NCBI RefSeq assembly: GCF_003790525.1
Contig: NZ_CP033635.1
Source: Escherichia coli
GTDB lineage: Bacteria; Pseudomonadota; Gammaproteobacteria; Enterobacterales; Enterobacteriaceae
Length of the DNA: 64,000 bases
Reading direction: 5' to 3' (one strand)
A program made the position numbers and the translations under genes. Positions 1 to 19,273 of the stretch are shown here, in pieces. Numbering within the stretch: position 1 is the first letter of the stretch; each line of letters starts with the position of its first letter. The notes beneath the pieces are model-generated. The model was not told the DNA's origin, did no database searches, and saw nothing but the letters and a program-made list of their open reading frames with translations.

Positions 1-428
1 GCTCAATCATCCCTCCGTTTGGCATCACACTTTCGTTCTTACTGACACGGCATAAATACACCCGTGCGGAGCGCGAGGCGCTGAAAGCCGCGTTTCCGAT
101 GGGGATCTGCATGATCACTGAAGGAGTCATTCCGATCGCCGCGCGTGACCTGCTGCGAGTAGTGGGATCTTGTGTGGTGGCATCGGCGGTCGCGGGCGGC
201 TTAATCATGGTGTGGGGCGTGGAGAGTCCGGTTCCGCATGGCGGCATGTTTGTTGTGCCTCTGTTCACCCATCCTCTGCTGTTTTGCCTGGCGCTGGGTA
301 TAGGCACGGTGATTTGTGGCGTGATGCTTTCACTCTGGAAGAAACCGGTAACGGAACGCGACGAAGAGTTTGACGAACTGAGCGATCAAAAGCTGAAAGA
401 TGAAGAGATCACTTTCACCCTCGAATAA
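1..428 (+). CDS. PTS fructose-family EIIC component, C-terminal part (5' end lies outside window)
   Basis: Reading frame is open from position 3 with no stop before the first ATG at 99; hydrophobic TM-like segments and an ITEGVIPIA motif resembling the GITEPAIPFA motif of fructose-type EIIC; stop at 428. Confidence 0.55.
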   Translation, partial: SIIPPFGITLSFLLTRHKYTRAEREALKAAFPMGICMITEGVIPIAARDLLRVVGSCVVASAVAGGLIMVWGVESPVPHGGMFVVPLFTHPLLFCLALGIGTVICGVMLSLWKKPVTERDEEFDELSDQKLKDEEITFTLE

Positions 429-439
429 CCGGAGGCCCT

Positions 440-1291
440 ATGTTTGCCGATATGAAAAGTATGGTGATGAAAGCCTGGCATGAACATTACGCCTTACTGG
501 CGATCAACTGTATGAATCTGGAAAGTGCTCACGCAGCTATCCGCGTGGCGGAGAAGAATCGCGCTCCGATCATTCTCAATCTCTATCAGGGGCATCTGGC
601 GCATTTTCCAGCACCCGTCGCGGCGGCAGTGGTTAAAACGCTCGCGGAATCTGCCTCAGTACCGGTCGCTCTGGCGCTTGATCATGGCAAAAATCCGGAC
701 TGTATTCGTCAGGCGTTTCGTGCTGGTTTCAGCGGATTAATGATTGATGCTTCTGCTTTTCCCCTGGAGGAAAACGTGCGCCAGACCAGGGCGGTGGTGG
801 AACTCGCCGCCAGCGCGCAGCTCTGCGTGGAAGGCGAACTGGGCCATCTGGCAGATGCGCCGCGTTACGACCAGGCCGCCAATGCAGACCTGATGACGCA
901 ACCCACTGATGTGGAAACGTTTATCGCGCAGACAGGCATTGATCTACTGGCCGTCTCGGTAGGCACGGCGCACGGCATGTACGCGCCTGGTGTTGTACCT
1001 GCTATTGATTTTCAGCGTCTGGCGGAGATTTTCCACTGCTCGAGCGTGCCTCTGGCATTACATGGCGGTAGCGGTACGCCGTTCGATCAGCTCCAGCTCT
1101 GTACGACGCTGGGGGTAGCAAAAATCAACGTGGGGGCGGCCATTTTTGAACGGGGGAAATCCGCGCTCCTGCATACCCTCTGTCACGATATATCCATTGA
1201 ACTGGTGGACGCGCTGAAAGCTATGGAACTGGCCTTCGAAGAAGCGATTACACCGTATTTACAGGCGAGCGGCTCTATCGGCAAAGCCTGA
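440..1291 (+). CDS. class II ketose-bisphosphate aldolase family protein (GatY/KbaY-like, divergent paralog)
   Basis: 283 aa; motifs LALDHG, SVGTAHGMY, LALHGGSGTP and IDFQRLAEI match the Zn-dependent class II aldolase family; GGAGG RBS 5 bp upstream of ATG. Confidence 0.7.
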   Translation: MFADMKSMVMKAWHEHYALLAINCMNLESAHAAIRVAEKNRAPIILNLYQGHLAHFPAPVAAAVVKTLAESASVPVALALDHGKNPDCIRQAFRAGFSGLMIDASAFPLEENVRQTRAVVELAASAQLCVEGELGHLADAPRYDQAANADLMTQPTDVETFIAQTGIDLLAVSVGTAHGMYAPGVVPAIDFQRLAEIFHCSSVPLALHGGSGTPFDQLQLCTTLGVAKINVGAAIFERGKSALLHTLCHDISIELVDALKAMELAFEEAITPYLQASGSIGKA

Positions 1292-1371
1292 TTCATTTTC
1301 TGTCATGGCCTTTATGCCAGTGCAATAACGCACCGGCAGGGCGGACTACACGCTGAAACTGGAGATTTAAC

Positions 1372-2232
1372 ATGTTAGTTTCGATGAAAGAATTACTGCA
1401 ACCTACCCGCCAGCACGGCTTTGCCATTGGCGCATTTAATGTGGCGGATAACTGTTTCCTTCGCGCAGTCGTGGATGAAGCAGAAGCGACAAATACTCCG
1501 GCGATTATTGCCATCCATCCCAGCGAACATGATTTTGTGGGCGATGCCTTTTTCGCTCACGTTCGCGAAATTACCCAGCGTAGTCCGGTCCCGTTTGTAC
1601 TGCACCTCGATCATGGTGCCTCTGTAGAGCATGTTTTGCGTGCGATTCGCTGCGGATTTACCTCAGTAATGATCGACGGTTCGCTGCTGCCGTATGAAGA
1701 AAACGTGGCGCTGACCGCAGAAGTGGTTCGCCTCGCTCACGCGGTTGGAGTGTCGGTTGAGGGTGAACTGGGAACCATCGGACAAACAGGAACGTCGGTA
1801 GAAGGTGGTGTTTCACAAGTGACCTACACAGATCCGGCGCAGGCCGCCGATTTTATTGCTCGTACAGGTGCCGACACTCTGGCTGTGGCGATTGGTACAG
1901 CGCATGGCATCTATCCAAAAGGGATGCAGCCGAAGCTGCAAATGGACATTTTGCGCGACATTGCCGGACGTATTGATATTCCGCTGGTGCTACACGGTGG
2001 TTCGGCAAACCCGGACGCGGAGATTGCTGAATCAGTTACGCTCGGCGTCGGCAAAATCAATATCTCCAGCGATATGAAATACGCCTATTTCCAGAAAGTG
2101 CGTGAAATTCTCGCTAAAGAGAGCTGGTGGGACCCGAACGTCATCTATCCGGATGCGATTAACGCGGCGCGGGAAGTCATTCGCCAGAAAATGAAACTGT
2201 TCGGTTCGATCGGTAAAGCGTCACTGTACTAA
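1372..2232 (+). CDS. class II ketose-bisphosphate aldolase (GatY/KbaY/FbaA family)
   Basis: 286 aa; canonical LHLDHG, AIGTAHG, LVLHGGS motifs; same C-terminal GSIGKA as the upstream paralog. Confidence 0.75.
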   Translation: MLVSMKELLQPTRQHGFAIGAFNVADNCFLRAVVDEAEATNTPAIIAIHPSEHDFVGDAFFAHVREITQRSPVPFVLHLDHGASVEHVLRAIRCGFTSVMIDGSLLPYEENVALTAEVVRLAHAVGVSVEGELGTIGQTGTSVEGGVSQVTYTDPAQAADFIARTGADTLAVAIGTAHGIYPKGMQPKLQMDILRDIAGRIDIPLVLHGGSANPDAEIAESVTLGVGKINISSDMKYAYFQKVREILAKESWWDPNVIYPDAINAAREVIRQKMKLFGSIGKASLY

Positions 2233-2279
2233 GCCAGAAGGGCGGGGCAACCCGCCTTTTACGCAACAAGGAACGAGAT

Positions 2280-3212
2280 ATGCACTATCTGGGGTTGGAT
2301 ATTGGTGGGACCAAAATCGCCGCCGTCGTCATGGATGCGCATGGCTGGGAGATTCGCCGTTACCGCTGCCCGACGCAAAAGTCGACATATCAACAATTTG
2401 TCTCATGCGTTGTGGCGCTTATCGAGCAGATTAGGCGGGACGTTCAACGACCGATGCTGACAGGGATCGCCTTACCCGGCAGTATCTCGCCACTCACTGG
2501 CCTGATTAAAAACGCGAATATTCAGGTGATTAACGGTCATGCGTTACAGGCTGATTTGCAGCAATTGCTTGGGCAACCGGTGGTGATAGCCAATGATGGT
2601 AACTGTTTCGCGCTATCAGAAGCTTGCGACGGTGCCGGGCAAGATTATGACGTGGTATTTGGTATTACGCTTGGTTCGGGCTGCGGCGGTGGCATTGCCA
2701 TCAAGCAACGACCGTTTATAGGGGCCTGGGGAAATGCTGCCGAATGCGGTCATATCACGTTGCCAGGCTATATGGAGCAGGAAGATGGTCCATCAGTCAG
2801 TTGCTATTGCGGCAAACACAACTGCGTGGAGTCGTTTGTTTCCGGCAGCGGTTTTAGTGAACGCTATCAACAGATGACTGGTAACTTGCTCACTCCTGCG
2901 GCGATTGTCACCCTGGCACAACGTGGTGATGCTTGTGCCATGCAGCAGGTGGCACGTTTTCGCCAACAGCTTGCCCGCACGCTGGCAACCATCGTTAACG
3001 TTGTTGACCCTGGCGTGATTGTCATCGGCGGCGGGCTTTCGAATGTGGAACTGCTTATCGCCGATCTGAACACAGAAGTCGCTCCTCTGGTTTTCACCGA
3101 CCAATTCACCACCCCCATTGTAAAAGCACTGCACGGCGACAGTAGCGGAATGCGTGGCGCTGCCTGGCTTGCTATGCGCAACGGAGAAGCCAATGAAACG
3201 TTCACAAATTAA
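2280..3212 (+). CDS. ROK-family sugar kinase (NagK-like, no HTH domain)
   Basis: 310 aa; N-terminal LGLDIGGTK ATP-binding motif, ANDGNCFALSEA, and zinc motif CYCGKHNCVE typical of ROK kinases; architecture collinear with NagK. Confidence 0.75.
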   Translation: MHYLGLDIGGTKIAAVVMDAHGWEIRRYRCPTQKSTYQQFVSCVVALIEQIRRDVQRPMLTGIALPGSISPLTGLIKNANIQVINGHALQADLQQLLGQPVVIANDGNCFALSEACDGAGQDYDVVFGITLGSGCGGGIAIKQRPFIGAWGNAAECGHITLPGYMEQEDGPSVSCYCGKHNCVESFVSGSGFSERYQQMTGNLLTPAAIVTLAQRGDACAMQQVARFRQQLARTLATIVNVVDPGVIVIGGGLSNVELLIADLNTEVAPLVFTDQFTTPIVKALHGDSSGMRGAAWLAMRNGEANETFTN

Positions 3213-3873
3213 TTATGTTATTGATAAAGCACATGCCATTGCGCAGACCTTCCGCGTTTGTTTGCCAGAGTTCGCCTATTTTACGGTGGATGACTGGCTG
3301 CAGCTGGAACGGGATAACTGGCAAGAAGTGGTCGACTTACAGCTCGGTTGGGATATCACCGATTTTGGTCGTGGTGATTTCAACCAAACGGGACTAACAC
3401 TGCTAACGATGCGCAACGGCGCGCTGGGGGCGGCGGCATATCCAAAACCGTATGCTGAGAAAATGTTGCAGATCCAACAAGATCAGCAAACTCCCTGGCA
3501 TTTTCACACCCACAAAATGGAAGATATCCTCAATCGGGGCGGTGGAGACTTATGCATGCAGTTGGCCTGGGCCAACGAAGCCAATCTCTGTGATGATCAA
3601 CGAGTCATTACCGTGAGTGTTGATGGTCAGCGGCGTACCATGAAACCTGGTGAAACGCTGGTGCTAAAGCCGGGGCAGGGCATTTGCCTGCCGCCGCGTC
3701 TGTATCATCGCTTCTGGGCGGAAAAAGCGTTTGTTCTCGGCTGGGAAATCTCGATGGTAAATGATGACCAACACGATAACTATTTTCTTGAGCCGGGAGG
3801 ACGTTTTCCGGCGATAGAAGAAGATGAACCGGTGAAATGGTTATTGTGCAGTGAGTATGGAATTTTGCGCTAA
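3193..3873 (+). CDS. cupin-type D-lyxose/D-mannose isomerase family protein
   Basis: About 226 aa from ATG 3193 (ORF track frame opens at 3154); similarity by recall to the characterised E. coli O157 D-lyxose isomerase (Z5688) and B. subtilis YdaE; start overlaps the upstream kinase stop by 20 bp. Confidence 0.6.
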   Translation: MKRSQINYVIDKAHAIAQTFRVCLPEFAYFTVDDWLQLERDNWQEVVDLQLGWDITDFGRGDFNQTGLTLLTMRNGALGAAAYPKPYAEKMLQIQQDQQTPWHFHTHKMEDILNRGGGDLCMQLAWANEANLCDDQRVITVSVDGQRRTMKPGETLVLKPGQGICLPPRLYHRFWAEKAFVLGWEISMVNDDQHDNYFLEPGGRFPAIEEDEPVKWLLCSEYGILR

Positions 3874-3882
3874 TAACGGGGA

Positions 3883-3918
3883 ACGCTAGCGCTGATATCC
3901 GCTAGCGTCCTTATTTTT
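3883..3918 (+). terminator. Rho-independent terminator closing the sugar operon
   Basis: Perfect 9-bp inverted repeat ACGCTAGCG / CGCTAGCGT with 8-nt loop followed by CCTTATTTTT. Confidence 0.6.
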
Positions 3919-5626
3919 ACTGCACCGACTCCGTCGACGTAACTTCACCACTGGAAACTACGCCCGCATTCATGGTTTGAGTCACTTGCTGCTTTGCGGC
4001 ATTCACGGCATGCAATTGCCCGCTAACCGTAGGTTTCAGCGGGATATTGGCCTGAATATTGCCGCTGGCGGTAAGCTGAATATTGCCGTCGCCAGTCAAC
4101 GGTAATTCAGGCCATCCCCACTGTTGCAAAATATTCACCGGCACACCGCGTCCATTCAGGCTGATATGGGTCTGACGTTGTGGCGTTTGTGAAACACTGG
4201 CGGTGGCTTCCAGAATGCCTTTTTCAGTAAATGCACTCAGTTCGCTGATATTCACCGTGCTGCTGTTGGCGGTCAGCGCCAGCGATGGGCGACGAACATC
4301 AACACGATTGAATGTCGCGGCGGCGGCATTCAGATTCGCCGAACCACTCCAGACGCCCCATTTATGATCGGTAACCAGCGTCAGGTTGGCACCGTAACCA
4401 TCGAGCGCGGTGAGCTGCCACGGGAAGTCAGGGTCGATATCAATGATCAGATTGCGGCTGGCGCTAAATCTCTTCAGTTGCAGGCTGTTTAACCAACCGG
4501 GTGTCGTTTCCATCCACAACTGTTGCCAGTTTTTTGGCAAGGTATATTCCAGTCCGGCAATTGCCGCATCATCGAGGATCAACATTTTCCCGTCACGCAA
4601 CCAGTTCCCTGACGTTCTGACCATGCCCCCTTCCCAGCGGCTGGTGAACTGGCGCAGTGCTACGCCCTGCGGGGAAAATTCCGCGTTTATAATCGGATCA
4701 AATAAATGCAGCGAGCCATAAATAAACTCGCTGGCGTTCATCGACAGTTTACCTTCCTGTGTCTGCCAGTCATCTTTACTGAAGGTCATGTTGCGCAAGC
4801 TGAGATCGAGGTCGGTCACCGCCCAGTCCGGACCTTGCAAACGAGCGTCGATGACTTCCAGGCGACCAATCTGCAACGACGGGACAGAGCGTAATGGCGC
4901 AAAGAAGTCGGTTAGCGATTTTTCGCTTTGTAGACGGATATCCGCCATGCGCAGGTTTTCCACTTGCCAGCTGCCGTCAGCGTTACGCTGCGCGTTTCCG
5001 GTTAATGTCCCGCGGGCGATGTCGGCACCCAGGTTAGTCAGCGTAACGCGATCGTTATCAATACTGCCTTCAATCAGTACATTGGTGGCAGGAACATCAT
5101 TGAGCGAAAGCGATCCGGCACTAAACTGAATCTGCGCCTTCGTACCCAGCACTTTACCGGCTTCTGGTGACCAAGGAACCACGCCGCCATTTACCCGCTG
5201 CGCGCTCAGTTTCCATTCGCTATTCGGGCTATTAAACGCCATATCACGTAGTTGCAGACGATCGGCTTTGAACGGTAGCGGCGCGGTCTGGTCGGTGAGA
5301 TTCAGCGTCCCGTTTTCCAGCAGGATGGTATCGACATGGCGTGGTTCGGTCAGTTGCCGACTGCTTAGCGCAATGTCGACACTTTTTGCCACCAGGGTCG
5401 CGGGCTGGCCATCACGGCCAAACGTGACGTTCTCCAGCACGATATGAGATGGCGCGGAAAAACGGTGATCCATCGCCCCGAAGGCCAGATGATAGTCGCT
5501 ATTCTCGGAAACCCATGCGCTGATATGTTCTGCTCCCCAGCGAGTTTGCAGCAGAAAATAGAGGCCAGCGATCACCACTAACAGAGCGATGAGAATGTAG
5601 AGAAGCAGCTTCCCAATAAATTTCAT
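3917..5626 (-). CDS. yicH: AsmA-family outer membrane biogenesis protein YicH
   Basis: 569 aa from MKFIGKLLLYILIALLVV; N-terminal TM anchor; position next to xanP as in K-12. Confidence 0.8.
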   Translation of the reverse strand: MKFIGKLLLYILIALLVVIAGLYFLLQTRWGAEHISAWVSENSDYHLAFGAMDHRFSAPSHIVLENVTFGRDGQPATLVAKSVDIALSSRQLTEPRHVDTILLENGTLNLTDQTAPLPFKADRLQLRDMAFNSPNSEWKLSAQRVNGGVVPWSPEAGKVLGTKAQIQFSAGSLSLNDVPATNVLIEGSIDNDRVTLTNLGADIARGTLTGNAQRNADGSWQVENLRMADIRLQSEKSLTDFFAPLRSVPSLQIGRLEVIDARLQGPDWAVTDLDLSLRNMTFSKDDWQTQEGKLSMNASEFIYGSLHLFDPIINAEFSPQGVALRQFTSRWEGGMVRTSGNWLRDGKMLILDDAAIAGLEYTLPKNWQQLWMETTPGWLNSLQLKRFSASRNLIIDIDPDFPWQLTALDGYGANLTLVTDHKWGVWSGSANLNAAAATFNRVDVRRPSLALTANSSTVNISELSAFTEKGILEATASVSQTPQRQTHISLNGRGVPVNILQQWGWPELPLTGDGNIQLTASGNIQANIPLKPTVSGQLHAVNAAKQQVTQTMNAGVVSSGEVTSTESVQ

Positions 5627-5746
5627 GGTCTTCCATCCCGTGAAATGCACATAAGGGAGTTATGCACGATTTACGCGCAATCCTCAAGGCGGGAATGGTG
5701 AAAGAGGTGAGACTGCGGCGGTAATTATCTTACCGCCGCCAGTGAA

Positions 5747-8658: not shown

Positions 8659-10738
8659 ACGCATTCGAGTAACGTTCCGTCTCCGGCATCCAGCGTTCTA
8701 TCAGGGCTTTTGCCTGTTGTGGGTAACGTTCGTGAATATGTCGCGCCAGGCGCTGAACTTCCGGGATCATCGCCTGATCGCGCAGTAAATCCGCCACTTT
8801 AAATTCAGCATTACCCGTCTGACGCGTACCTAACAGTTCACCCGGTCCGCGAATCTCTAAGTCTTTCTGTGCAATCACAAAACCGTCGTTGCTGTCGCGC
8901 AGCACTTGCAGCCGAATTTGCGCGGTTTTGGAGAGCGGCGTTTTGTAGAGCAGCACGCAGTGAGAAGCCACCGCACCACGACCTACACGCCCGCGAAGCT
9001 GGTGTAACTGCGCCAGACCCAGACGCTCCGGGTTTTCGATAATCATCAGACTGGCGTTAGGCACATCAACACCGACTTCAATAACGGTAGTGGCAACCAG
9101 CAGGTGTAGTTCACCTTGTTTAAACGACGCCATCACCGCCTGTTTATCGGCAGGTTTCATCCGCCCGTGTACCAGGCCGACGTTCAGTTCCGGCAACGCC
9201 AGTTTCAACTCTTCCCAGGTTGCTTCCGCCGCCTGCGCTTCCAGCAATTCCGACTCTTCAATCAACGTACAAACCCAGTATGCCTGACGACCTTCAGTTA
9301 TGCAGGCGTGGCGCACGCGGTCAATAATGTCGGTACGGCGGGTATCAGGAATAGCGACCGTAGTCACTGGCGTGCGTCCTGGCGGCAGCTCATCTATCAC
9401 CGAGGTATCGAGATCGGCATACGCAGTCATCGCCAGCGTGCGGGGGATGGGCGTGGCGGTCATGATCAACTGATGCGGATGGAAGCCCTGCTGCTGGCCT
9501 TTCTCCCATAACGCCAGACGCTGATGCACGCCAAAACGATGCTGTTCGTCGATAATCACCAGCGCCAGACCGTTAAACTGCACCTGTTCCTGGAAGATGG
9601 CGTGTGTTCCGACAATCATCTGCACCTGACCGCTGGCGATGGCTTCCTGCTGTGCCAGCCGCGCTTTACCTTTCTGCTTACCGGCGAGCCAGCCCACTTC
9701 GATACCGAGCGGTGCAAACCAGTTACGGAAGTTATTGGCGTGCTGTTCGGCGAGTAATTCGGTTGGTGCCATCAATGCCACCTGTTTGCCGTGGGCAATC
9801 GCACGCAGCGCGGCGAGGGCGGCGACCAGCGTTTTACCGGAACCTACATCGCCCTGTACCAGGCGCATCATCGGCACATCCAGCGCCATATCGCGCTCGA
9901 TCTCCGCCGCTACGCGTGCCTGTGCGCCCGTTGGCTTGAACGGTAAGGCGGCGAGGAGTTTATTTTTCAGCGCGTCATTGGCGCTCAGTGGCTGGGCATG
10001 AAAACGCTGTGCTCCGGCACGTAAGGCTAACATGCTGAGGTTGTGCGCCAGCAGTTCCTCCAGAATCAGACGGCGTTGTGCCGGATGCTGGCCGGTTTCC
10101 AGATCGCTAAGCTGTAGCGTCGGCGGCGGGCGGTGCAAAGTGCGCAACGCTTCCGGTAGCGTCATCATTCCTTGTGACAGTTCCGGCGGCAGGAGTTCTT
10201 CAATGGCGCAGGTGTCGAGCAGATCAAGCGCCTGGTCGGTTAATTTACGCAGCGTGGCCTGCTTTACGCCTTCGGTTGTTGGATAAACCGGCGTAAGCGT
10301 TTCCTGCAACTCTGGCGTACTGAGATCGCCCTGCACGCGGTATTCCGGGTGGATCATCTCCGCACCATATTTACCGCGCTTTGCTTCTCCATAGGCCAGC
10401 ACGCGGCGGCCCGTCGCCAGGCTATTTTTCATTGCCGCGTTGAAGTTGAAAAAGCGCATGGTGAGAATGCCGGAACCGTCGCTGATCTGGCAGGTCATCA
10501 TCCGCCGACCGCCGAAGGAGATATTGCAGTTCAGCACTTCGCCTTCCACCGTGGCATAAACGCCCGGTAGTAGTTCTCCGATGGGGTAGAGATGGGTGCG
10601 ATCTTCGTAGCGCAGGGGAAGGTGTAAGAGTAGATCCTGCACGGTATGCAGGTTGATTTTCGCCAGCTTGTTACTAAGCGCTGCGCCAACGCCCGTTAGG
10701 GAACTGAGCGGGACAGCATCTAACAGGCGACCTTTCAT
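8657..10738 (-). CDS. recG: ATP-dependent DNA helicase RecG
   Basis: 693 aa from MKGRLLDAVPLSSLTGVGA; helicase motifs GDVGSGKT, DEQHRFG; ORF-track start at 10771 is an upstream extension. Confidence 0.9.
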   Translation of the reverse strand: MKGRLLDAVPLSSLTGVGAALSNKLAKINLHTVQDLLLHLPLRYEDRTHLYPIGELLPGVYATVEGEVLNCNISFGGRRMMTCQISDGSGILTMRFFNFNAAMKNSLATGRRVLAYGEAKRGKYGAEMIHPEYRVQGDLSTPELQETLTPVYPTTEGVKQATLRKLTDQALDLLDTCAIEELLPPELSQGMMTLPEALRTLHRPPPTLQLSDLETGQHPAQRRLILEELLAHNLSMLALRAGAQRFHAQPLSANDALKNKLLAALPFKPTGAQARVAAEIERDMALDVPMMRLVQGDVGSGKTLVAALAALRAIAHGKQVALMAPTELLAEQHANNFRNWFAPLGIEVGWLAGKQKGKARLAQQEAIASGQVQMIVGTHAIFQEQVQFNGLALVIIDEQHRFGVHQRLALWEKGQQQGFHPHQLIMTATPIPRTLAMTAYADLDTSVIDELPPGRTPVTTVAIPDTRRTDIIDRVRHACITEGRQAYWVCTLIEESELLEAQAAEATWEELKLALPELNVGLVHGRMKPADKQAVMASFKQGELHLLVATTVIEVGVDVPNASLMIIENPERLGLAQLHQLRGRVGRGAVASHCVLLYKTPLSKTAQIRLQVLRDSNDGFVIAQKDLEIRGPGELLGTRQTGNAEFKVADLLRDQAMIPEVQRLARHIHERYPQQAKALIERWMPETERYSNA

Positions 10739-11439: not shown

Positions 11440-13548
11440 TTAATTTCGGTTTCGGGTGACTTTAATCACGTCTGGCATCACGCGGATTTTGCGCATGATA
11501 TTCGCCAGATGCACACGGTCACGGGCGGTCAGACGAATAAAGGCGCTGTAGACGCGACCATCTTTCTCTTCCGTATTCAAACTTTGAATATTCGAGGTCG
11601 TGGTGTTAATTGCCGCTGTCAGGTTTGCCAGCGCGCCCTGATGATTGAACATCTCCACCTTGATTTCGGTGATGAACTCCTGCGCCGTCTCTTTATCCCA
11701 TTCCACAGCCATAAACTTCTCTGGCTCTTTCTGGTAGCCACGGATGTTACGGCAGGATTCATGGTGGATCACCAGACCTTTACCGGGGCTCACGTGGGCG
11801 ATAATCGGGTCGCCAGGAATAGGGCGGCAGCATTTCGCAAAGGTGATCAGCACGCCATCGGCACCTTTAATGGGCAGATGTCCGTGACTTTGGGTTGCCG
11901 GTGGAATGGAGGCGTCCCCATGTTGCAGATTTTTCGCGACCACCACGCTCATTGCGTTACCAAGGCCGATTTCAGCCAGCAGATCGTCAAGCGTTGCCAG
12001 CTTCATGCGGTCCAGCTCGCGCTGAATATTTTCCTGCGGGATTTCATTGAGCTTACGGCTACCACCCAACGCATGGTTGAGCAGACGACGTCCCAGGCTT
12101 ACAGAATCATCACGCTTGAGGTTTTTCAGCAACTGACGAATTTTGGCGCGCGCTTTCGAGCTGACGACAAAGTTCAGCCACGCGGCATTCGGGCGAGCGC
12201 CCGGTGCGGTAATGATTTCAACGGTTTGACCGCTGGTAAGCGGCTGCGACAGCGGGTAAGGCTGACGGTCGACACGCGCGCCCACGCAGGCATGACCGAT
12301 ATCGGTATGCACCGCATAAGCGAAGTCGACGGGCGTTGCACCGGCAGGCAGTTCGACAATGCGCCCTTCCGGTGTGAAAACGTAAATCTCATCCGGGAAG
12401 AGATCGGATTTAACGCTCTCGATAAATTCAAACGAGCTACCGGCACTCTGTTGCAGCTCCAGCAGGCTTTGCATCCAGCGCTGGGCGCGGATTTGCGCGG
12501 TGGTGCTGGTTTCGCCGTGCTCTTTATAAGCCCAGTGCGCGGCAACACCCATCTCCGCCATCTGATCCATATCTTCGGTACGGATTTGGACCTCAACCGG
12601 CACGCCGTGCGGGCCAATCATCGAGGTGTGCAAAGACTGATAGCCGTTCGCTTTTGGAATGGCGATGTAGTCTTTCACGCGACCCGGACGCGGCTTGTAC
12701 AGGCTATGCATTTGCCCGAGCACGCGATAACAGGTGTCGGAATCATTGACGATCACGCGGAAAGCGTAGATGTCCATGATTGAGTGAAAACGCTGCTCTT
12801 TGAGCACCATTTTGCAGTAGATCGAATAAAGATGCTTCTCGCGACCACTGACGCGGCACGGTATTCCCGCTTCCTGCAAACGCCCTTCGATTTCAGAGAG
12901 GATTTTTTGGATCATCTCTTTACGGTTGCCGCGTGCGGCTTTCACCACTTCTTTGATTACGCGGTAACGGTTGGGATACAGCGCCTCAAAACCCAGCTCT
13001 TCGAGTTCGGTTTTAATGTGGTGGATACCTAAACGGTGCGCCAGCGGGCTGTAAATTTCGAGTGTTTCACGGGCGATGCGGCGACGTTTGTCCGGGCGAA
13101 GTGAGCCCAGCGTGCGCATGTTGTGGGTACGGTCGGCAAGTTTGATGAGAATGACGCGGATATCCTGCACCATCGCCATAATCATCTTGCGAAAGTTTTC
13201 GGCCTGCGCCTCTTTCTTATCGCGGAACTTGAGCTTATCAAGTTTCGACACCCCCTCTACCAGCTCGGCGACGCTTTTACCAAAAAGCTGTTCCATGTCC
13301 TGGTAGGTGGCGGGAGTATCTTCAATCACGTCATGCAGCAGCGCCGCCATCAGCGTTTCATAGTCGAGTTTCATCTCGGCCAGAATGCAGGCAACCGCCA
13401 CCGGGTGCGTGATATAGGGTTCACCGCTTGAACGTGTTTGCCCCTCGTGAGCATCACGTGCAACGAGATACGCCTGCCGCAGACGCTTGATTTGGTCTTC
13501 CGGCAGGTAGGTTTGAATCAGTTGATTCAGGCTTTCAAACAGATACAA
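11440..13548 (-). CDS. spoT: bifunctional (p)ppGpp synthetase/hydrolase SpoT
   Basis: 702 aa; HD domain (HDVIEDT), synthetase domain, TGS and ACT C-terminal regions. Confidence 0.92.
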   Translation of the reverse strand: MYLFESLNQLIQTYLPEDQIKRLRQAYLVARDAHEGQTRSSGEPYITHPVAVACILAEMKLDYETLMAALLHDVIEDTPATYQDMEQLFGKSVAELVEGVSKLDKLKFRDKKEAQAENFRKMIMAMVQDIRVILIKLADRTHNMRTLGSLRPDKRRRIARETLEIYSPLAHRLGIHHIKTELEELGFEALYPNRYRVIKEVVKAARGNRKEMIQKILSEIEGRLQEAGIPCRVSGREKHLYSIYCKMVLKEQRFHSIMDIYAFRVIVNDSDTCYRVLGQMHSLYKPRPGRVKDYIAIPKANGYQSLHTSMIGPHGVPVEVQIRTEDMDQMAEMGVAAHWAYKEHGETSTTAQIRAQRWMQSLLELQQSAGSSFEFIESVKSDLFPDEIYVFTPEGRIVELPAGATPVDFAYAVHTDIGHACVGARVDRQPYPLSQPLTSGQTVEIITAPGARPNAAWLNFVVSSKARAKIRQLLKNLKRDDSVSLGRRLLNHALGGSRKLNEIPQENIQRELDRMKLATLDDLLAEIGLGNAMSVVVAKNLQHGDASIPPATQSHGHLPIKGADGVLITFAKCCRPIPGDPIIAHVSPGKGLVIHHESCRNIRGYQKEPEKFMAVEWDKETAQEFITEIKVEMFNHQGALANLTAAINTTTSNIQSLNTEEKDGRVYSAFIRLTARDRVHLANIMRKIRVMPDVIKVTRNRN

Positions 13549-13566
13549 GGGCGACCCGCTTTGTGA

Positions 13567-13842
13567 TTAACGACGACCTTCAGCAATAGCGGTAACGGCT
13601 TGTAATTCAGCGGCTTCCTGCTCTTGCTGTTCCTGGCGTTCACGAACGTCGAGGATCTGGTTGTTGATCAGACCTTCTTCGATTTCGCGCAGCGCGATTA
13701 CAGTGGTTTTATCGTTTTCTTCCGGTACCAGCGGATCCTTTCCGCCTACCTGCATCTGACGAGCGCGACGCGCGGCGACCAGTACCAGGTCAAAACGGTT
13801 ACCAATTTTCTCTACAGCGTCCTGAACAGTTACGCGTGCCAT
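13567..13842 (-). CDS. rpoZ: RNA polymerase omega subunit
   Basis: 91 aa [29 protein letters not shown]. Confidence 0.92.
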
Positions 13843-13896
13843 ACTTAAAAAGCTCCACAGGTGAAGAAATGACTGGGCATGATACTGAAATCAGGT

Positions 13897-14684
<788 letters not shown>

Positions 14685-14685
14685 C

Positions 14686-17073
<2,388 letters not shown>

Positions 17074-17363
17074 GGTTCTCTCCCTAAAAATCTGTCTGGC
17101 AGGGTAGCGATTTGTGCGTATTGTCACGATTGAGATTTTTTAAGGTGAGAGGAAATTGATAACTTTTAGTTATGTGAAATCGCTATTTTCTGTAGCGTAG
17201 ATGTATTCTTCTGACTTCTTGTCTGAGAAAATGCATAAGAAAAAATAGGTTAAAATTGAGGGTGGAAAAGAAAGGTGCAATGTTTAGCCATTGTGTTCAC
17301 CGCACCTGGACTTTGGCTTACGCATCGGGTATCTCAATCAACAAAAAGAGTTTTTAGTTTCTG

Positions 17364-18188
17364 CTATTTCTTCTCTGTAATTTTTACACTGTTTTCCAAC
17401 TGCTTGATGCTGACCTGCGGGGTCGGCAACTCTTCAGGCATGGTTCCGCCAAGTTCCTGAATGGTTTGCCTCACCTTGCTACCCACGTCAAAGTGTGTGG
17501 TATTAGCTTGCTGTTTTGAATTCACGCCATCCCGCTTGAGTTTTTCTTCTGTTTGGGTAGCTCGAAAGAGATTAGCCGCCAGTTCTGTTGAACCCATATG
17601 ATCCAGGATCTTCTGACTCTTTTTCAGCCCCTTCCGCTGATGGATGGCTTTCTGATCTAATCCACCATACAGTCCCCGGTAACCATGATTCTGAAATATG
17701 GCGAAATCGGTAGCTGTCGCTACCCCAGCTTGCTGCGCTGCCTCAACTAATTGTTTGTTATGTTCTTTCAACTCATTTCTCAGAAAAAGACGCTTTTCGT
17801 CTTCACGAAGTTGCCTGAAAGCTTCATCGTCAGCCAGCTCCTGCCGTCGGGTCTGGATAGCAAAATAAGTTTGCCCTGCCGCAATAACCGGTTTCGCAGG
17901 GTCGCCGTTTTGTACTACCAGGTAACAGGCATAGCGGGAGAGATGAACATCTTCAAGTTCTCGTTGAGCCCCTGAACCTAATACAACCATTTTGGTGGTT
18001 TCAACGAAATGGTCAGATGCAGCTTGATTGCTGGCTTCGCACGCTTGAGTCGCGCGGGCCAGTACCTTTTGAAAATTGCGCCAGTCCCGATAATCCAGTA
18101 ACGGAGCCAATTCTCTCGCTGACCAAAATTCTTGCCCTTCAGTGCCATAATGCCGTATTTCTTCAAAAGGTTGATGATGTTCGTTCAT
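17364..18188 (-). CDS. dinD: DNA damage-inducible protein D
   Basis: 274 aa from MNEHHQPFEEIRHYG; LexA box immediately upstream. Confidence 0.8.
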   Translation of the reverse strand: MNEHHQPFEEIRHYGTEGQEFWSARELAPLLDYRDWRNFQKVLARATQACEASNQAASDHFVETTKMVVLGSGAQRELEDVHLSRYACYLVVQNGDPAKPVIAAGQTYFAIQTRRQELADDEAFRQLREDEKRLFLRNELKEHNKQLVEAAQQAGVATATDFAIFQNHGYRGLYGGLDQKAIHQRKGLKKSQKILDHMGSTELAANLFRATQTEEKLKRDGVNSKQQANTTHFDVGSKVRQTIQELGGTMPEELPTPQVSIKQLENSVKITEKK

Positions 18189-18233
18189 TGCCCACTCCAT
18201 GTGATATCGATTGCAAGGAAAGTAAGTTTACAA

Positions 18234-18249
18234 CTGTGTTTATATACAG
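18234..18249. promoter_or_regulatory. LexA (SOS) box upstream of dinD
   Basis: CTGTGTTTATATACAG matches the CTG-N10-CAG SOS box consensus, 46 bp upstream of the dinD start. Confidence 0.7.
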
Positions 18250-18409
18250 TTGTGAGTATCTCACGTTCTCACTGCGCTGGGCAAAAAAACATCGCAAAAT
18301 CTGGAGCAGGCACGCAAAACAGAATTGAATGTTGCGGGGAGGAAAAATGCCGCTCTGTTTGAGTGGGCGGCATTTGTGAAGGCTGAAAAGGAAGAATTGG
18401 CGTTACGAG

Positions 18410-19273
18410 TTATTCAATGTTCTGAATCTGCTCGCGCATCTGCTCAATCAACACTTTCAGCTCAATCGCGGAGTTTGTCACTTCGGCATTGATAGACTTC
18501 GAAGCAAGAGTGTTCGACTCGCGGTTGAACTCCTGCATCATAAAGTCCAGACGACGGCCAACCGCTTCTTTTTTCTTCAGAATGTTGTAGGTCTCTTTGA
18601 CATGCGCTTCGAGGCGATCCAGTTCTTCGGCAACGTCAATTCGTTGTGCCAGCAGAACCAACTCCTGCTCCAGACGGTTGTTTTCCAGTTGCACCTGAGC
18701 ATCTTCCAGCTTCGCGACCAGACGCTCACGCTGCCATTGCAGGATTTCCGGCATATGGGCGCGGACTTTGACCACTTCGGCGCTGACGCCTTCCAGACGC
18801 TGCTCAATCAACACTTTCAGCGCCTGACCTTCGGTTTCACGTGCGATGATAAAGTCGTCCAGCGTACCATCCAACGCCGCGAGAATTTCAGCGGCAATCG
18901 CGTCGAGATCCTGCTCCTGGGCTGCCATCACGCCCGGCCAGCGTAGAATATCAACCGGATTGATTTCCCCTTCGTCACTCTGCATTTTTACCCAGTTCGC
19001 GGCAGTTACCAGCTGTTTAGCCAGTTTTTCGTTGAGGATCAGCTCACCTTGCGCGCTAACATCTGGCTCATAGCGCAGGGTACATTCCACTTTACCGCGC
19101 GTCAGGCGAGAACGAATACGCTCACGAACGACAGGTTCAAGGCTACGGAACTGCTCCGGCAGACGAAAGTAAGTTTCCAGATAACGCTGGTTTACCGAGC
19201 GCATTTCCCAGGTTGCGCTCCCCCATTCACCCTTGATTTCACGCCGGGCGTAGGCGGTCATACTGCGGATCAT
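18410..19273 (-). CDS. yicC: YicC-family stress-induced protein (endoribonuclease-like)
   Basis: 287 aa MIRSMTAYARREIKGEWGSATWEMRSVNQRYLE. Confidence 0.85.
   Translation of the reverse strand: MIRSMTAYARREIKGEWGSATWEMRSVNQRYLETYFRLPEQFRSLEPVVRERIRSRLTRGKVECTLRYEPDVSAQGELILNEKLAKQLVTAANWVKMQSDEGEINPVDILRWPGVMAAQEQDLDAIAAEILAALDGTLDDFIIARETEGQALKVLIEQRLEGVSAEVVKVRAHMPEILQWQRERLVAKLEDAQVQLENNRLEQELVLLAQRIDVAEELDRLEAHVKETYNILKKKEAVGRRLDFMMQEFNRESNTLASKSINAEVTNSAIELKVLIEQMREQIQNIE

Follow-up and report, generated by a model that had tools for sequence, protein, structure and literature searches.

A strain-variable sugar operon beside yicH of Escherichia coli is almost certainly the distal half of the known frz operon

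The closest described counterpart of the locus studied here is the frz operon of extraintestinal pathogenic Escherichia coli (ExPEC). The locus itself occupies positions 1-3918 of a 64,000-nucleotide stretch of E. coli DNA (contig NZ_CP033635.1 of assembly GCF_003790525.1), the whole of which is called the window below. In strain BEN2908 the region GR27, listed as 'yicH..yicI', spans 3991916..3999198 (7283 bp) and holds the 7227-bp frz of Rouquet et al. 2009 (J Bacteriol 191:4427), and the copies of ExPEC and of adherent-invasive E. coli (AIEC) are more than 95% identical (PMC12928451). Papers citing that work state that the frz genes are transcribed as one operon, help cells to survive late stationary phase when oxygen is restricted, bias the type 1 fimbria switch to ON and act as a fitness element for intestinal colonisation. 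Among avian strains, frz is reported for 75% of the most virulent group, as against 5% of those that are non-pathogenic. Work on avian pathogenic E. coli (APEC) identifies 'frz orf4' as a fructose transporter subunit IIC of the phosphotransferase system (PTS) and includes it in a routine APEC typing scheme, and a 2021 APEC review files frz under 'unknown/not clearly known functions'.

Several other systems share parts of this gene content. A D-tagatose cluster of phylogroup B2, located at accC-yhdT and validated experimentally in Nissle 1917 (PMC9720028), is like frz strain-variable, B2-enriched, devoted to a rare sugar and equipped with a class II ketose-bisphosphate aldolase at its end, and it sets the precedent for a route from a free ketose through the 6-phosphate and the 1,6-bisphosphate to an aldolase. 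It lies at another locus, however, and has an ABC transporter but no cupin isomerase, PTS or PRD regulator; identity of this cluster with frz was rejected on the grounds of locus and transporter. In K-12, GatY/GatZ, KbaY/KbaZ and FruBKA have in common with frz that uptake is by a PTS and that a class II aldolase then splits a ketose bisphosphate; Frz EIIABC is a member of the fructose PTS family that also includes FruA. In contrast to these pathways, frz has no GatZ/KbaZ-type partner, carrying a second PF01116 paralogue instead, and no FruK-type 1-phosphofructokinase, while its free-sugar isomerase and its ROK kinase are additional. YdjI of K-12 (PDB 6OFU), from the same Pfam family as the Frz aldolases, uses a ketose 1-phosphate and not a bisphosphate, but it is a distant homologue whose substrate and gene context are unrelated. 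Finally, the D-lyxose isomerase of E. coli O157, Z5688/ECs5070, shares with the frz isomerase the 'group 2' long form of PF07385, the metal/catalytic residues and the company of a class II aldolase and a sugar kinase. The O157 island differs from frz in having an ABC transporter instead of a PTS, a PfkB instead of a ROK kinase, a different regulator, and one aldolase (NF005284 type) instead of two. In O157 Sakai it comprises the genes ECs_5067-5073 (11701-18467 of the Sakai stretch, L010), namely a regulator, PfkB kinase, class II aldolase, cupin and ABC transporter, and it is bordered by yjcS on one side and, on the other, by a histidine kinase gene adjacent to phnP; in K-12 this position is that of the allose operon.

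The window matches E. coli SMS-3-5 with 100% identity, and the DNA 5' of it was taken from that strain; the SMS-3-5 stretch covering the window and the upstream DNA is referred to as L001 (window 3917..5626 corresponds to L001 15917-17626). The RefSeq annotation of SMS-3-5 places eight genes in the interval from the yicI stop codon to that of yicH, in the order PRD/Mga-type regulator, EIIA, EIIB, EIIC, two class II aldolases, ROK kinase and cupin isomerase. All frames are intact, and the operon genes within the window lie on the + strand, with intergenic gaps of 11, 80 and 47 nt and then a 20-nt overlap of the kinase and isomerase genes. An initial annotation, made from the window alone, had described a co-directional five-gene operon closed by a terminator; the content, the layout and the terminator were as it described, but the operon has eight genes and is cut by the start of the window. 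Retrieval of the upstream sequence, which it had proposed, yielded the PRD/Mga-type regulator, EIIA, EIIB and the rest of EIIC. The yicI-yicH interval of SMS-3-5 measures 7281 bp, against 7283 bp in BEN2908. The two copies, compared by position, size and order, also agree in lying between yicH and yicI, in gene order and in the absence of the operon from K-12, so that nothing substantive separates the window copy from that of the other strain. EIIC is the fourth gene, in agreement with the published designation 'frz orf4'. Given the yicI-yicH position, the size of about 7.2 kb and EIIC as the fourth gene, window 1-3918 is almost certainly the distal half of the eight-gene frz operon. The original description reportedly lists an activator of the MgA family, EIIA, EIIB and EIIC of the fructose subfamily, two class II ketose-bisphosphate aldolases, a ROK kinase and a cupin, and this eight-gene list is matched by the SMS-3-5 genes as judged from domain models and RefSeq annotation. 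The novelty implied by the initial annotation did not hold, as frz had been named and described in 2009 and placed at yicH..yicI (PMC12928451); its observation was confirmed and its interpretation was broadly right, for an operon already known. The explanation as a whole, comprising the identity of frz together with its regulation and catabolic role, is in our judgement very probable.

In K-12 MG1655 the stop codons of yicI and yicH are only 52 bp apart, and the frz genes are therefore absent from K-12, as the initial annotation had stated for the yicH neighbourhood. The expectation that the operon is strain-variable was borne out by a presence/absence survey: the frz segment was found in 1605 of 5426 complete E. 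coli genomes, in single copy and at 95-100% identity, and a query made from the empty K-12 junction was covered to at least 80% in 3816 of these genomes. Carriers and empty sites together account for 5421 of the 5426, which amounts to a clean two-state polymorphism. A single 'plasmid' match, to NZ_JBUBJV010000003.1 (GPEC60-33-648, 122 kb), covered 31% of the query, corresponding to EIIC and aldolase 1, and is probably a chromosomal contig labelled as plasmid or a truncated frz copy. At the left junction the hairpin just 3' of yicI is kept, and at the right junction the frz terminator abuts yicH. This intrinsic terminator (3883..3918, + strand) has a stem at 3883-3908, of 9 bp with 6 G-C pairs and a loop of 8, followed by the tail CCTTATTTTT up to 3918. 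Its RNA folds at -19.3 kcal/mol (z = -3.6), and none of 200 shuffled sequences folded as well. The T-run overlaps the stop codon of yicH (3917-3919, - strand), and the terminator is missing from the empty site of K-12. No integrase, insertion sequence (IS) element or direct repeat was seen at the E. coli junctions.

Citrobacter and K. aerogenes likewise have the complete set of eight genes between yicI and yicH; in K. aerogenes a GH4/PTS locus follows. Klebsiella sp. RHBSTW-00215 has frz in this interval minus the ROK kinase gene. In Salmonella all eight genes lie beyond yicJI, with an integrase fragment as neighbour, and Raoultella carries all eight in an unrelated context. Compared with Citrobacter, Salmonella and Klebsiella, the dN/dS values were 0.02-0.10 for all eight genes, which are under strong purifying selection, and the dS of frz fell in the same, saturated, range as that of the flanking genes yicI and xanP. 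The interval shared with Citrobacter and Klebsiella, the comparable divergence, the lack of mobility genes and the purifying selection make loss likelier than recent gain. Thus, frz looks like an old enterobacterial locus that was lost from about 70% of the sequenced E. coli strains.

The first gene of the operon encodes a 517-aa regulator in which N-terminal HTH_11 and Mga domains are combined with a pair of PRD domains and with a PTS_IIB domain resembling EIIB(Gat). No CAT RNA-binding domain was found in it, despite its RefSeq name 'BglG family antiterminator', and the GlcT and LicT models match its PRD part only. Antiterminators of the BglG/LicT type consist of an N-terminal CAT domain and two PRDs in about 280 aa, whereas the frz protein is much longer and begins with HTH_11/Mga. 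The N-terminal HTH and Mga domains, the two PRDs and the EIIB(Gat)-like domain are shared with the activators Mga/AtxA and MtlR/LicR, and the gene adjoins its PTS genes, as is the case for PRD-containing activators of these types. The frz regulator stops after the EIIB-like domain, in contrast to MtlR and LicR, of which an EIIA(Mtl)-like domain is a feature. Among the transport proteins, EIIA passed the cut-off of TIGR00848 (127 vs 103.5 bits) and EIIB that of TIGR00829 (100 vs 76.85). The window holds only the 3' end of EIIC ('frz orf4'; 1..428, + strand, 142 codons plus stop, frame open at the window start), the translation of which aligns to positions 232-346 of TIGR01427. The full gene (L001 11337-12428; 363 aa, WP_000662199.1) starts 663 nt upstream of the window, and its product passed TIGR01427 with 311.5 bits against a cut-off of 157.55. 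None of the equivalogs FruA, FrwC, MngA and FrvB was reached by EIIA, EIIB or EIIC. The GC content is 41-44% in the regulator, EIIA and EIIB genes (GC3 34-42%; L001 8930-11312) and 50-56% in EIIC and the four enzyme genes (L001 11337-15873), a break within the operon which suggests a mosaic origin, with the regulatory and soluble PTS part possibly derived separately from the catabolic part.

The 294-nt region 5' of the regulator gene contains blocks conserved across genera. Conserved in this way are a CRP-like site, TGCGA-N6-TCACG (L001 8725-8740), and a perfect 17-nt palindrome, TGTCCGGATTACGGACA (TGTCCGG-N3-CGGACA; L001 8809-8825). A TATATT hexamer with a poor -35 lies 32 nt downstream of the palindrome, and all these elements lie within L001 8725-8867. 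A strict sigma-70 scan upstream of the regulator gene returned no promoter; the palindrome together with a T-run was scored there as terminator-like. Because the TATATT region is conserved across genera, a frz promoter with a weak -35 is proposed, and from its elements the region looks like an activator-dependent promoter. By analogy with MtlR, LicR and Mga regulators, the Frz PTS would import and phosphorylate the sugar and would signal its presence to the activator through phosphorylation of the PRDs by HPr and Frz EIIA/EIIB; the activator would then drive the weak promoter from the palindrome, with the CRP-like site upstream. This regulatory logic of PTS sensing, PRD activator and palindrome promoter appears to us reasonably likely.

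Of the two aldolases, only paralogue 2 (1372..2232, + strand, 286 aa) passed curated cut-offs, those of NF006042 (PRK08185; 525.6 bits vs 405) and TIGR00167 (261.3 vs 215.6), and it is of the class II ketose-bisphosphate type. Paralogue 1 (440..1291, + strand, 283 aa) is a divergent class II (Zn) aldolase, 33% identical to paralogue 2, for which TIGR01859 gave the best score (211 bits). It remained under the curated cut-off of every one of the 20 listed NCBIfam models, with 198.4 against 215.6 bits for TIGR00167. Its PDB matches were class II aldolases for fructose and tagatose bisphosphate as well as YdjI, at E values of about 1e-41 to 1e-38, and across both Frz aldolases the matches include the KbaY and GatY types and YdjI. 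Paralogue 1 keeps the motifs LDHG, EGELG, TAHG, LHGGSG and KIN, the last in the form KINVGAA, where the canonical aligned chains have KINVNTE or KINTDTD. The motifs LDHG, TAHG and LHGGS, which are the Zn-binding Asp-His/His motifs of class II aldolases, occur in the two paralogues as well as in every orthologue. The dN/dS values were 0.05-0.08 for aldolase 1 and 0.03-0.04 for aldolase 2. The aldolases of the cupin clusters in O157 and Salmonella are 41-43% identical to aldolase 2 and 34-35% identical to aldolase 1. For the Frz enzymes, the NCBIfam models do not separate bisphosphate from 1-phosphate specificity.

The 80-nt spacer between the aldolase genes contains an imperfect hairpin (1302..1346, + strand), found as a stem by RNAalifold and lacking a T-run after it. 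The spacer is unusually well conserved: the alignment of 1270-1390, which includes it and both gene ends, had a mean column identity of 87% across E. coli, Citrobacter, Salmonella and two Klebsiella. Compensatory changes occurred in 3 pairs of the stem only and several pairs were broken, and with so little covariation no structured RNA is claimed. The hairpin might be an element of mRNA processing or stability.

The kinase (2280..3212, + strand, 310 aa) belongs to the Mak/NagK clade of ROK-family sugar kinases, judging from NCBIfam models, PDB matches and motifs; DIGGTK, NDGNC and CYCGKHNC can be read in its translation. All model scores were under the cut-offs, with 314.9 against 443 bits for the Mak-type fructokinase (NF007108), 241 against 380 for NagK (NF009835) and 143.1 against 260.35 for the ROK glucokinase family. 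Its best PDB matches are NagK structures. The description 'NagK-like' in the initial annotation was thus imprecise, the Mak-type score being the higher and neither cut-off being reached. In the frz operon of Klebsiella sp. RHBSTW-00215 (positions 9936-10001 of the Klebsiella stretch, L012), the ROK kinase gene alone is gone, and aldolase 2 and the cupin are separated by 64 nt.

The last gene (3193..3873, + strand, 226 aa) encodes a cupin aldose-ketose isomerase of the D-lyxose/D-mannose isomerase family (PF07385), as assigned by NCBIfam models and PDB matches. Its start is the ATG at 3193, which is that of RefSeq and of the orthologues, all of which begin MKRS; for this reason a GTG at 3154 was rejected as the start. 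The NF051472 score of 272.4 bits is under the equivalog cut-off of 350, and a Pfam PF07385 match is recorded for the cluster. The sole PDB match is 3KMH/3MPB, the O157 D-lyxose isomerase, which is the characterised family member that the initial annotation had named. The cupin is nevertheless not the O157 enzyme itself, an identification that was tried and rejected, because it is 49% identical to Z5688/ECs5070, which lies on another island at the separate locus yjcS-phnP. The motifs HFH-x2-K-x-E (metal/catalytic) and LYH are kept in alignment with 3KMH, the roles of these residues being taken from the literature. Characterised members of the family isomerise free D-lyxose and D-mannose and, less well, L-ribose, with a preference for D-lyxose, and by its family membership the Frz cupin may convert a free aldose of the D-lyxose/D-mannose type.

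Citrobacter, Klebsiella, Raoultella and Salmonella have orthologues of the cupin (71-82% identity), and more distant relatives lie in clusters of other composition. A Salmonella clade with 62% identity is accompanied by a major facilitator superfamily (MFS) transporter, a mutarotase, a class II aldolase, a PfkB kinase, an alcohol dehydrogenase and a DeoR regulator, and a spirochaete cupin lies between a GH38 alpha-mannosidase and a PfkB kinase. The PfkB kinases of these clusters resemble ribokinase and IolC, not FruK; those that accompany the cupin in O157 and Salmonella are of a type acting on free sugars. Homologues at 52-53% identity, including those of Clostridiales, are solitary, without a kinase or aldolase, and gave no pathway information. 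Isomerase, kinase and class II aldolase form a recurring module which is served by three uptake systems, PTS, ABC and MFS.

For the catabolic steps a scheme with two entries is proposed. In the free-sugar branch the cupin would make a ketose from a free aldose of the D-lyxose/D-mannose type and the Mak-like ROK kinase would phosphorylate it. This branch and the PTS entry, which would turn a ketose into a ketose phosphate, would meet at the class II aldolases, which would cleave the ketose phosphate to dihydroxyacetone phosphate and an aldehyde phosphate or free aldehyde. The aldolase substrate may be a bisphosphate to which a housekeeping Pfk has added the second phosphate, in the manner of the D-tagatose route; alternatively, it may be a 1-phosphate, the kind of substrate used by YdjI. 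The loss of the kinase gene in the Klebsiella lineage fits a branch in which this enzyme can be replaced by a host kinase. The specific order of the enzymes is put forward tentatively.

A number of observations weigh against frz being an old catabolic operon of this design. The PTS yields a sugar phosphate, whereas the cupin and Mak-type ROK kinases use free sugars, so that there is no obvious single linear pathway. Aldolase 1, the kinase and the cupin are all under their equivalog cut-offs, and specificities can therefore not be transferred from the named enzymes. The kinase is not indispensable, because one otherwise intact Klebsiella operon is without it. The first three genes are low in GC relative to the other five, and the different contexts in Salmonella and Raoultella mean that some lateral movement has occurred. 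The dS values are above 1 and saturated, which makes the argument for vertical inheritance a qualitative one. In the searchable literature no substrate, D-lyxose phenotype or metabolic-model entry was found for frz, in accordance with the earlier statement that no substrate or pathway was established and with the 2021 review. Moreover, the published phenotypes were obtained in LB and serum with no special sugar added, which is at least as compatible with sensing as with nutrition.

The first of the alternative explanations takes frz as the D-lyxose utilisation operon of the classical Aerobacter aerogenes pathway, in which the cupin would form D-xylulose, the ROK kinase or XylB would phosphorylate it, and the aldolases would cleave xylulose 1-phosphate or serve a side branch. 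K. aerogenes has the complete frz, and its cupin cluster includes WP_154105566.1, a protein used as 'Klebsiella aerogenes LI' beside a citation of the 1965 Aerobacter aerogenes D-lyxose isomerase (PMC8378251). The preference of the characterised family members for D-lyxose points the same way. However, the 1965 protein was never sequenced, so its link to this cupin is by species only, and a fructose-family PTS and two aldolases would be superfluous for the conversion of D-lyxose to xylulose 5-phosphate. In addition, the sugar is apparently among the carbon sources of Biolog arrays, and no D-lyxose phenotype linked to frz was found in the searchable papers. We regard this explanation as unlikely for the operon as a whole; by way of the K. 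aerogenes cupin sequence, D-lyxose is nevertheless an inexpensive first candidate for the substrate.

The Frz PTS could also be mainly sensory, its phosphorylation state reporting carbon or energy status and biasing, either directly or by way of the regulator, the fim switch and stress fitness, with nutrition negligible. The published phenotypes are survival in LB in late stationary phase or at low oxygen and the fimbria ON bias, none being growth on a named sugar, and the regulator has an Mga/AtxA-like architecture typical of virulence regulators. Yet a pure sensor would not need the four catabolic genes, which are intact, strongly constrained across genera and found again with non-PTS transporters. 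A mainly sensory role seems to us not very likely.

A third explanation starts from the PTS product. Fructose-family systems give 1-phosphates, as is established for FruA, and a ketohexose such as D-tagatose, D-psicose, sorbose or a similar sugar would then pass through the 1-phosphate, a second kinase and the 1,6-bisphosphate to the two aldolases, with the isomerase feeding in the matching aldose only, for example D-talose. That aldolase 2 passes a ketose-bisphosphate cut-off and that KbaY and GatY are among the aldolase matches would agree with such a route. It would, however, require a kinase for the 1-phosphoketose, and frz encodes none of the PfkB type; to our knowledge, ROK kinases do not act on sugar phosphates, and the one in frz is dispensable in a Klebsiella lineage. 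D-tagatose is in any case an unlikely frz substrate because B2 strains have the separate accC-yhdT cluster, by which this sugar is used in Nissle 1917. The ketohexose route is rated as rather doubtful. Similarly doubtful is a joint reading in which frz was ancestral before the split of Escherichia, Citrobacter and Klebsiella, its link to ExPEC reflects loss by lineages, and it encodes the classical 'Aerobacter aerogenes' D-lyxose isomerase system. If this joint reading were true, the substrate would be a sugar of D-lyxose/D-mannose configuration or its ketose, and the PTS would deliver a ketose 1-phosphate that is cleaved directly by the YdjI-like class II aldolases.

A different origin would apply if frz were an ExPEC pathogenicity or fitness islet recently acquired by horizontal transfer. 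The 5% of non-pathogenic avian strains as compared with 75% of the most virulent ones, the low GC of the first three genes, the integrase fragment that adjoins the Salmonella copy beyond yicJI and the Raoultella copy in yet another context would fit such a history. On the other hand, the E. coli junctions show no integrase, IS element or direct repeat, Citrobacter and Klebsiella have the operon in the same interval, the protein and synonymous divergence resembles that of the flanking core genes, and about 30% of the complete genomes carry frz, so that a recent acquisition is improbable. Finally, a cryptic, decaying PTS operon without current function, like frv, frw and fry of K-12, would account for no substrate having been found since the 2009 description, but it is highly improbable in view of the intact frames, the dN/dS values of 0.02-0.10 across genera and the published deletion phenotypes.

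Beyond the operon, the AsmA-family gene yicH (3917..5626, - strand) is the conserved flank, and the same gene borders the empty site of K-12. Its longest open reading frame starts from a GTG at 5650 (577 aa), while RefSeq and K-12 use 5626 (569 aa), a trivial ambiguity. Beside yicJ in SMS-3-5, the selC tRNA gene is accompanied by an island (L001 1-4632) with a tyrosine recombinase, a 906-aa SIR2-family protein and a phage polarity suppression protein, and this island resembles P4-like satellites and may include a defence gene.

Much about frz was known before: it was named in 2009, phenotypes have been published, and the gene cluster serves worldwide as an APEC/ExPEC marker. New here are the interval shared with Citrobacter and Klebsiella, the purifying selection on the eight genes, the link to the K. 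aerogenes cupin and the recurring enzyme module. These comparative points are leads and not discoveries, and they add nothing categorically new. They narrow the candidate substrates to sugars of D-lyxose/D-mannose configuration and their ketoses, for which K. aerogenes would be an easy test organism, and identification of the sugar used by Frz would account for the retention of the operon in roughly 30% of the E. coli sequenced.

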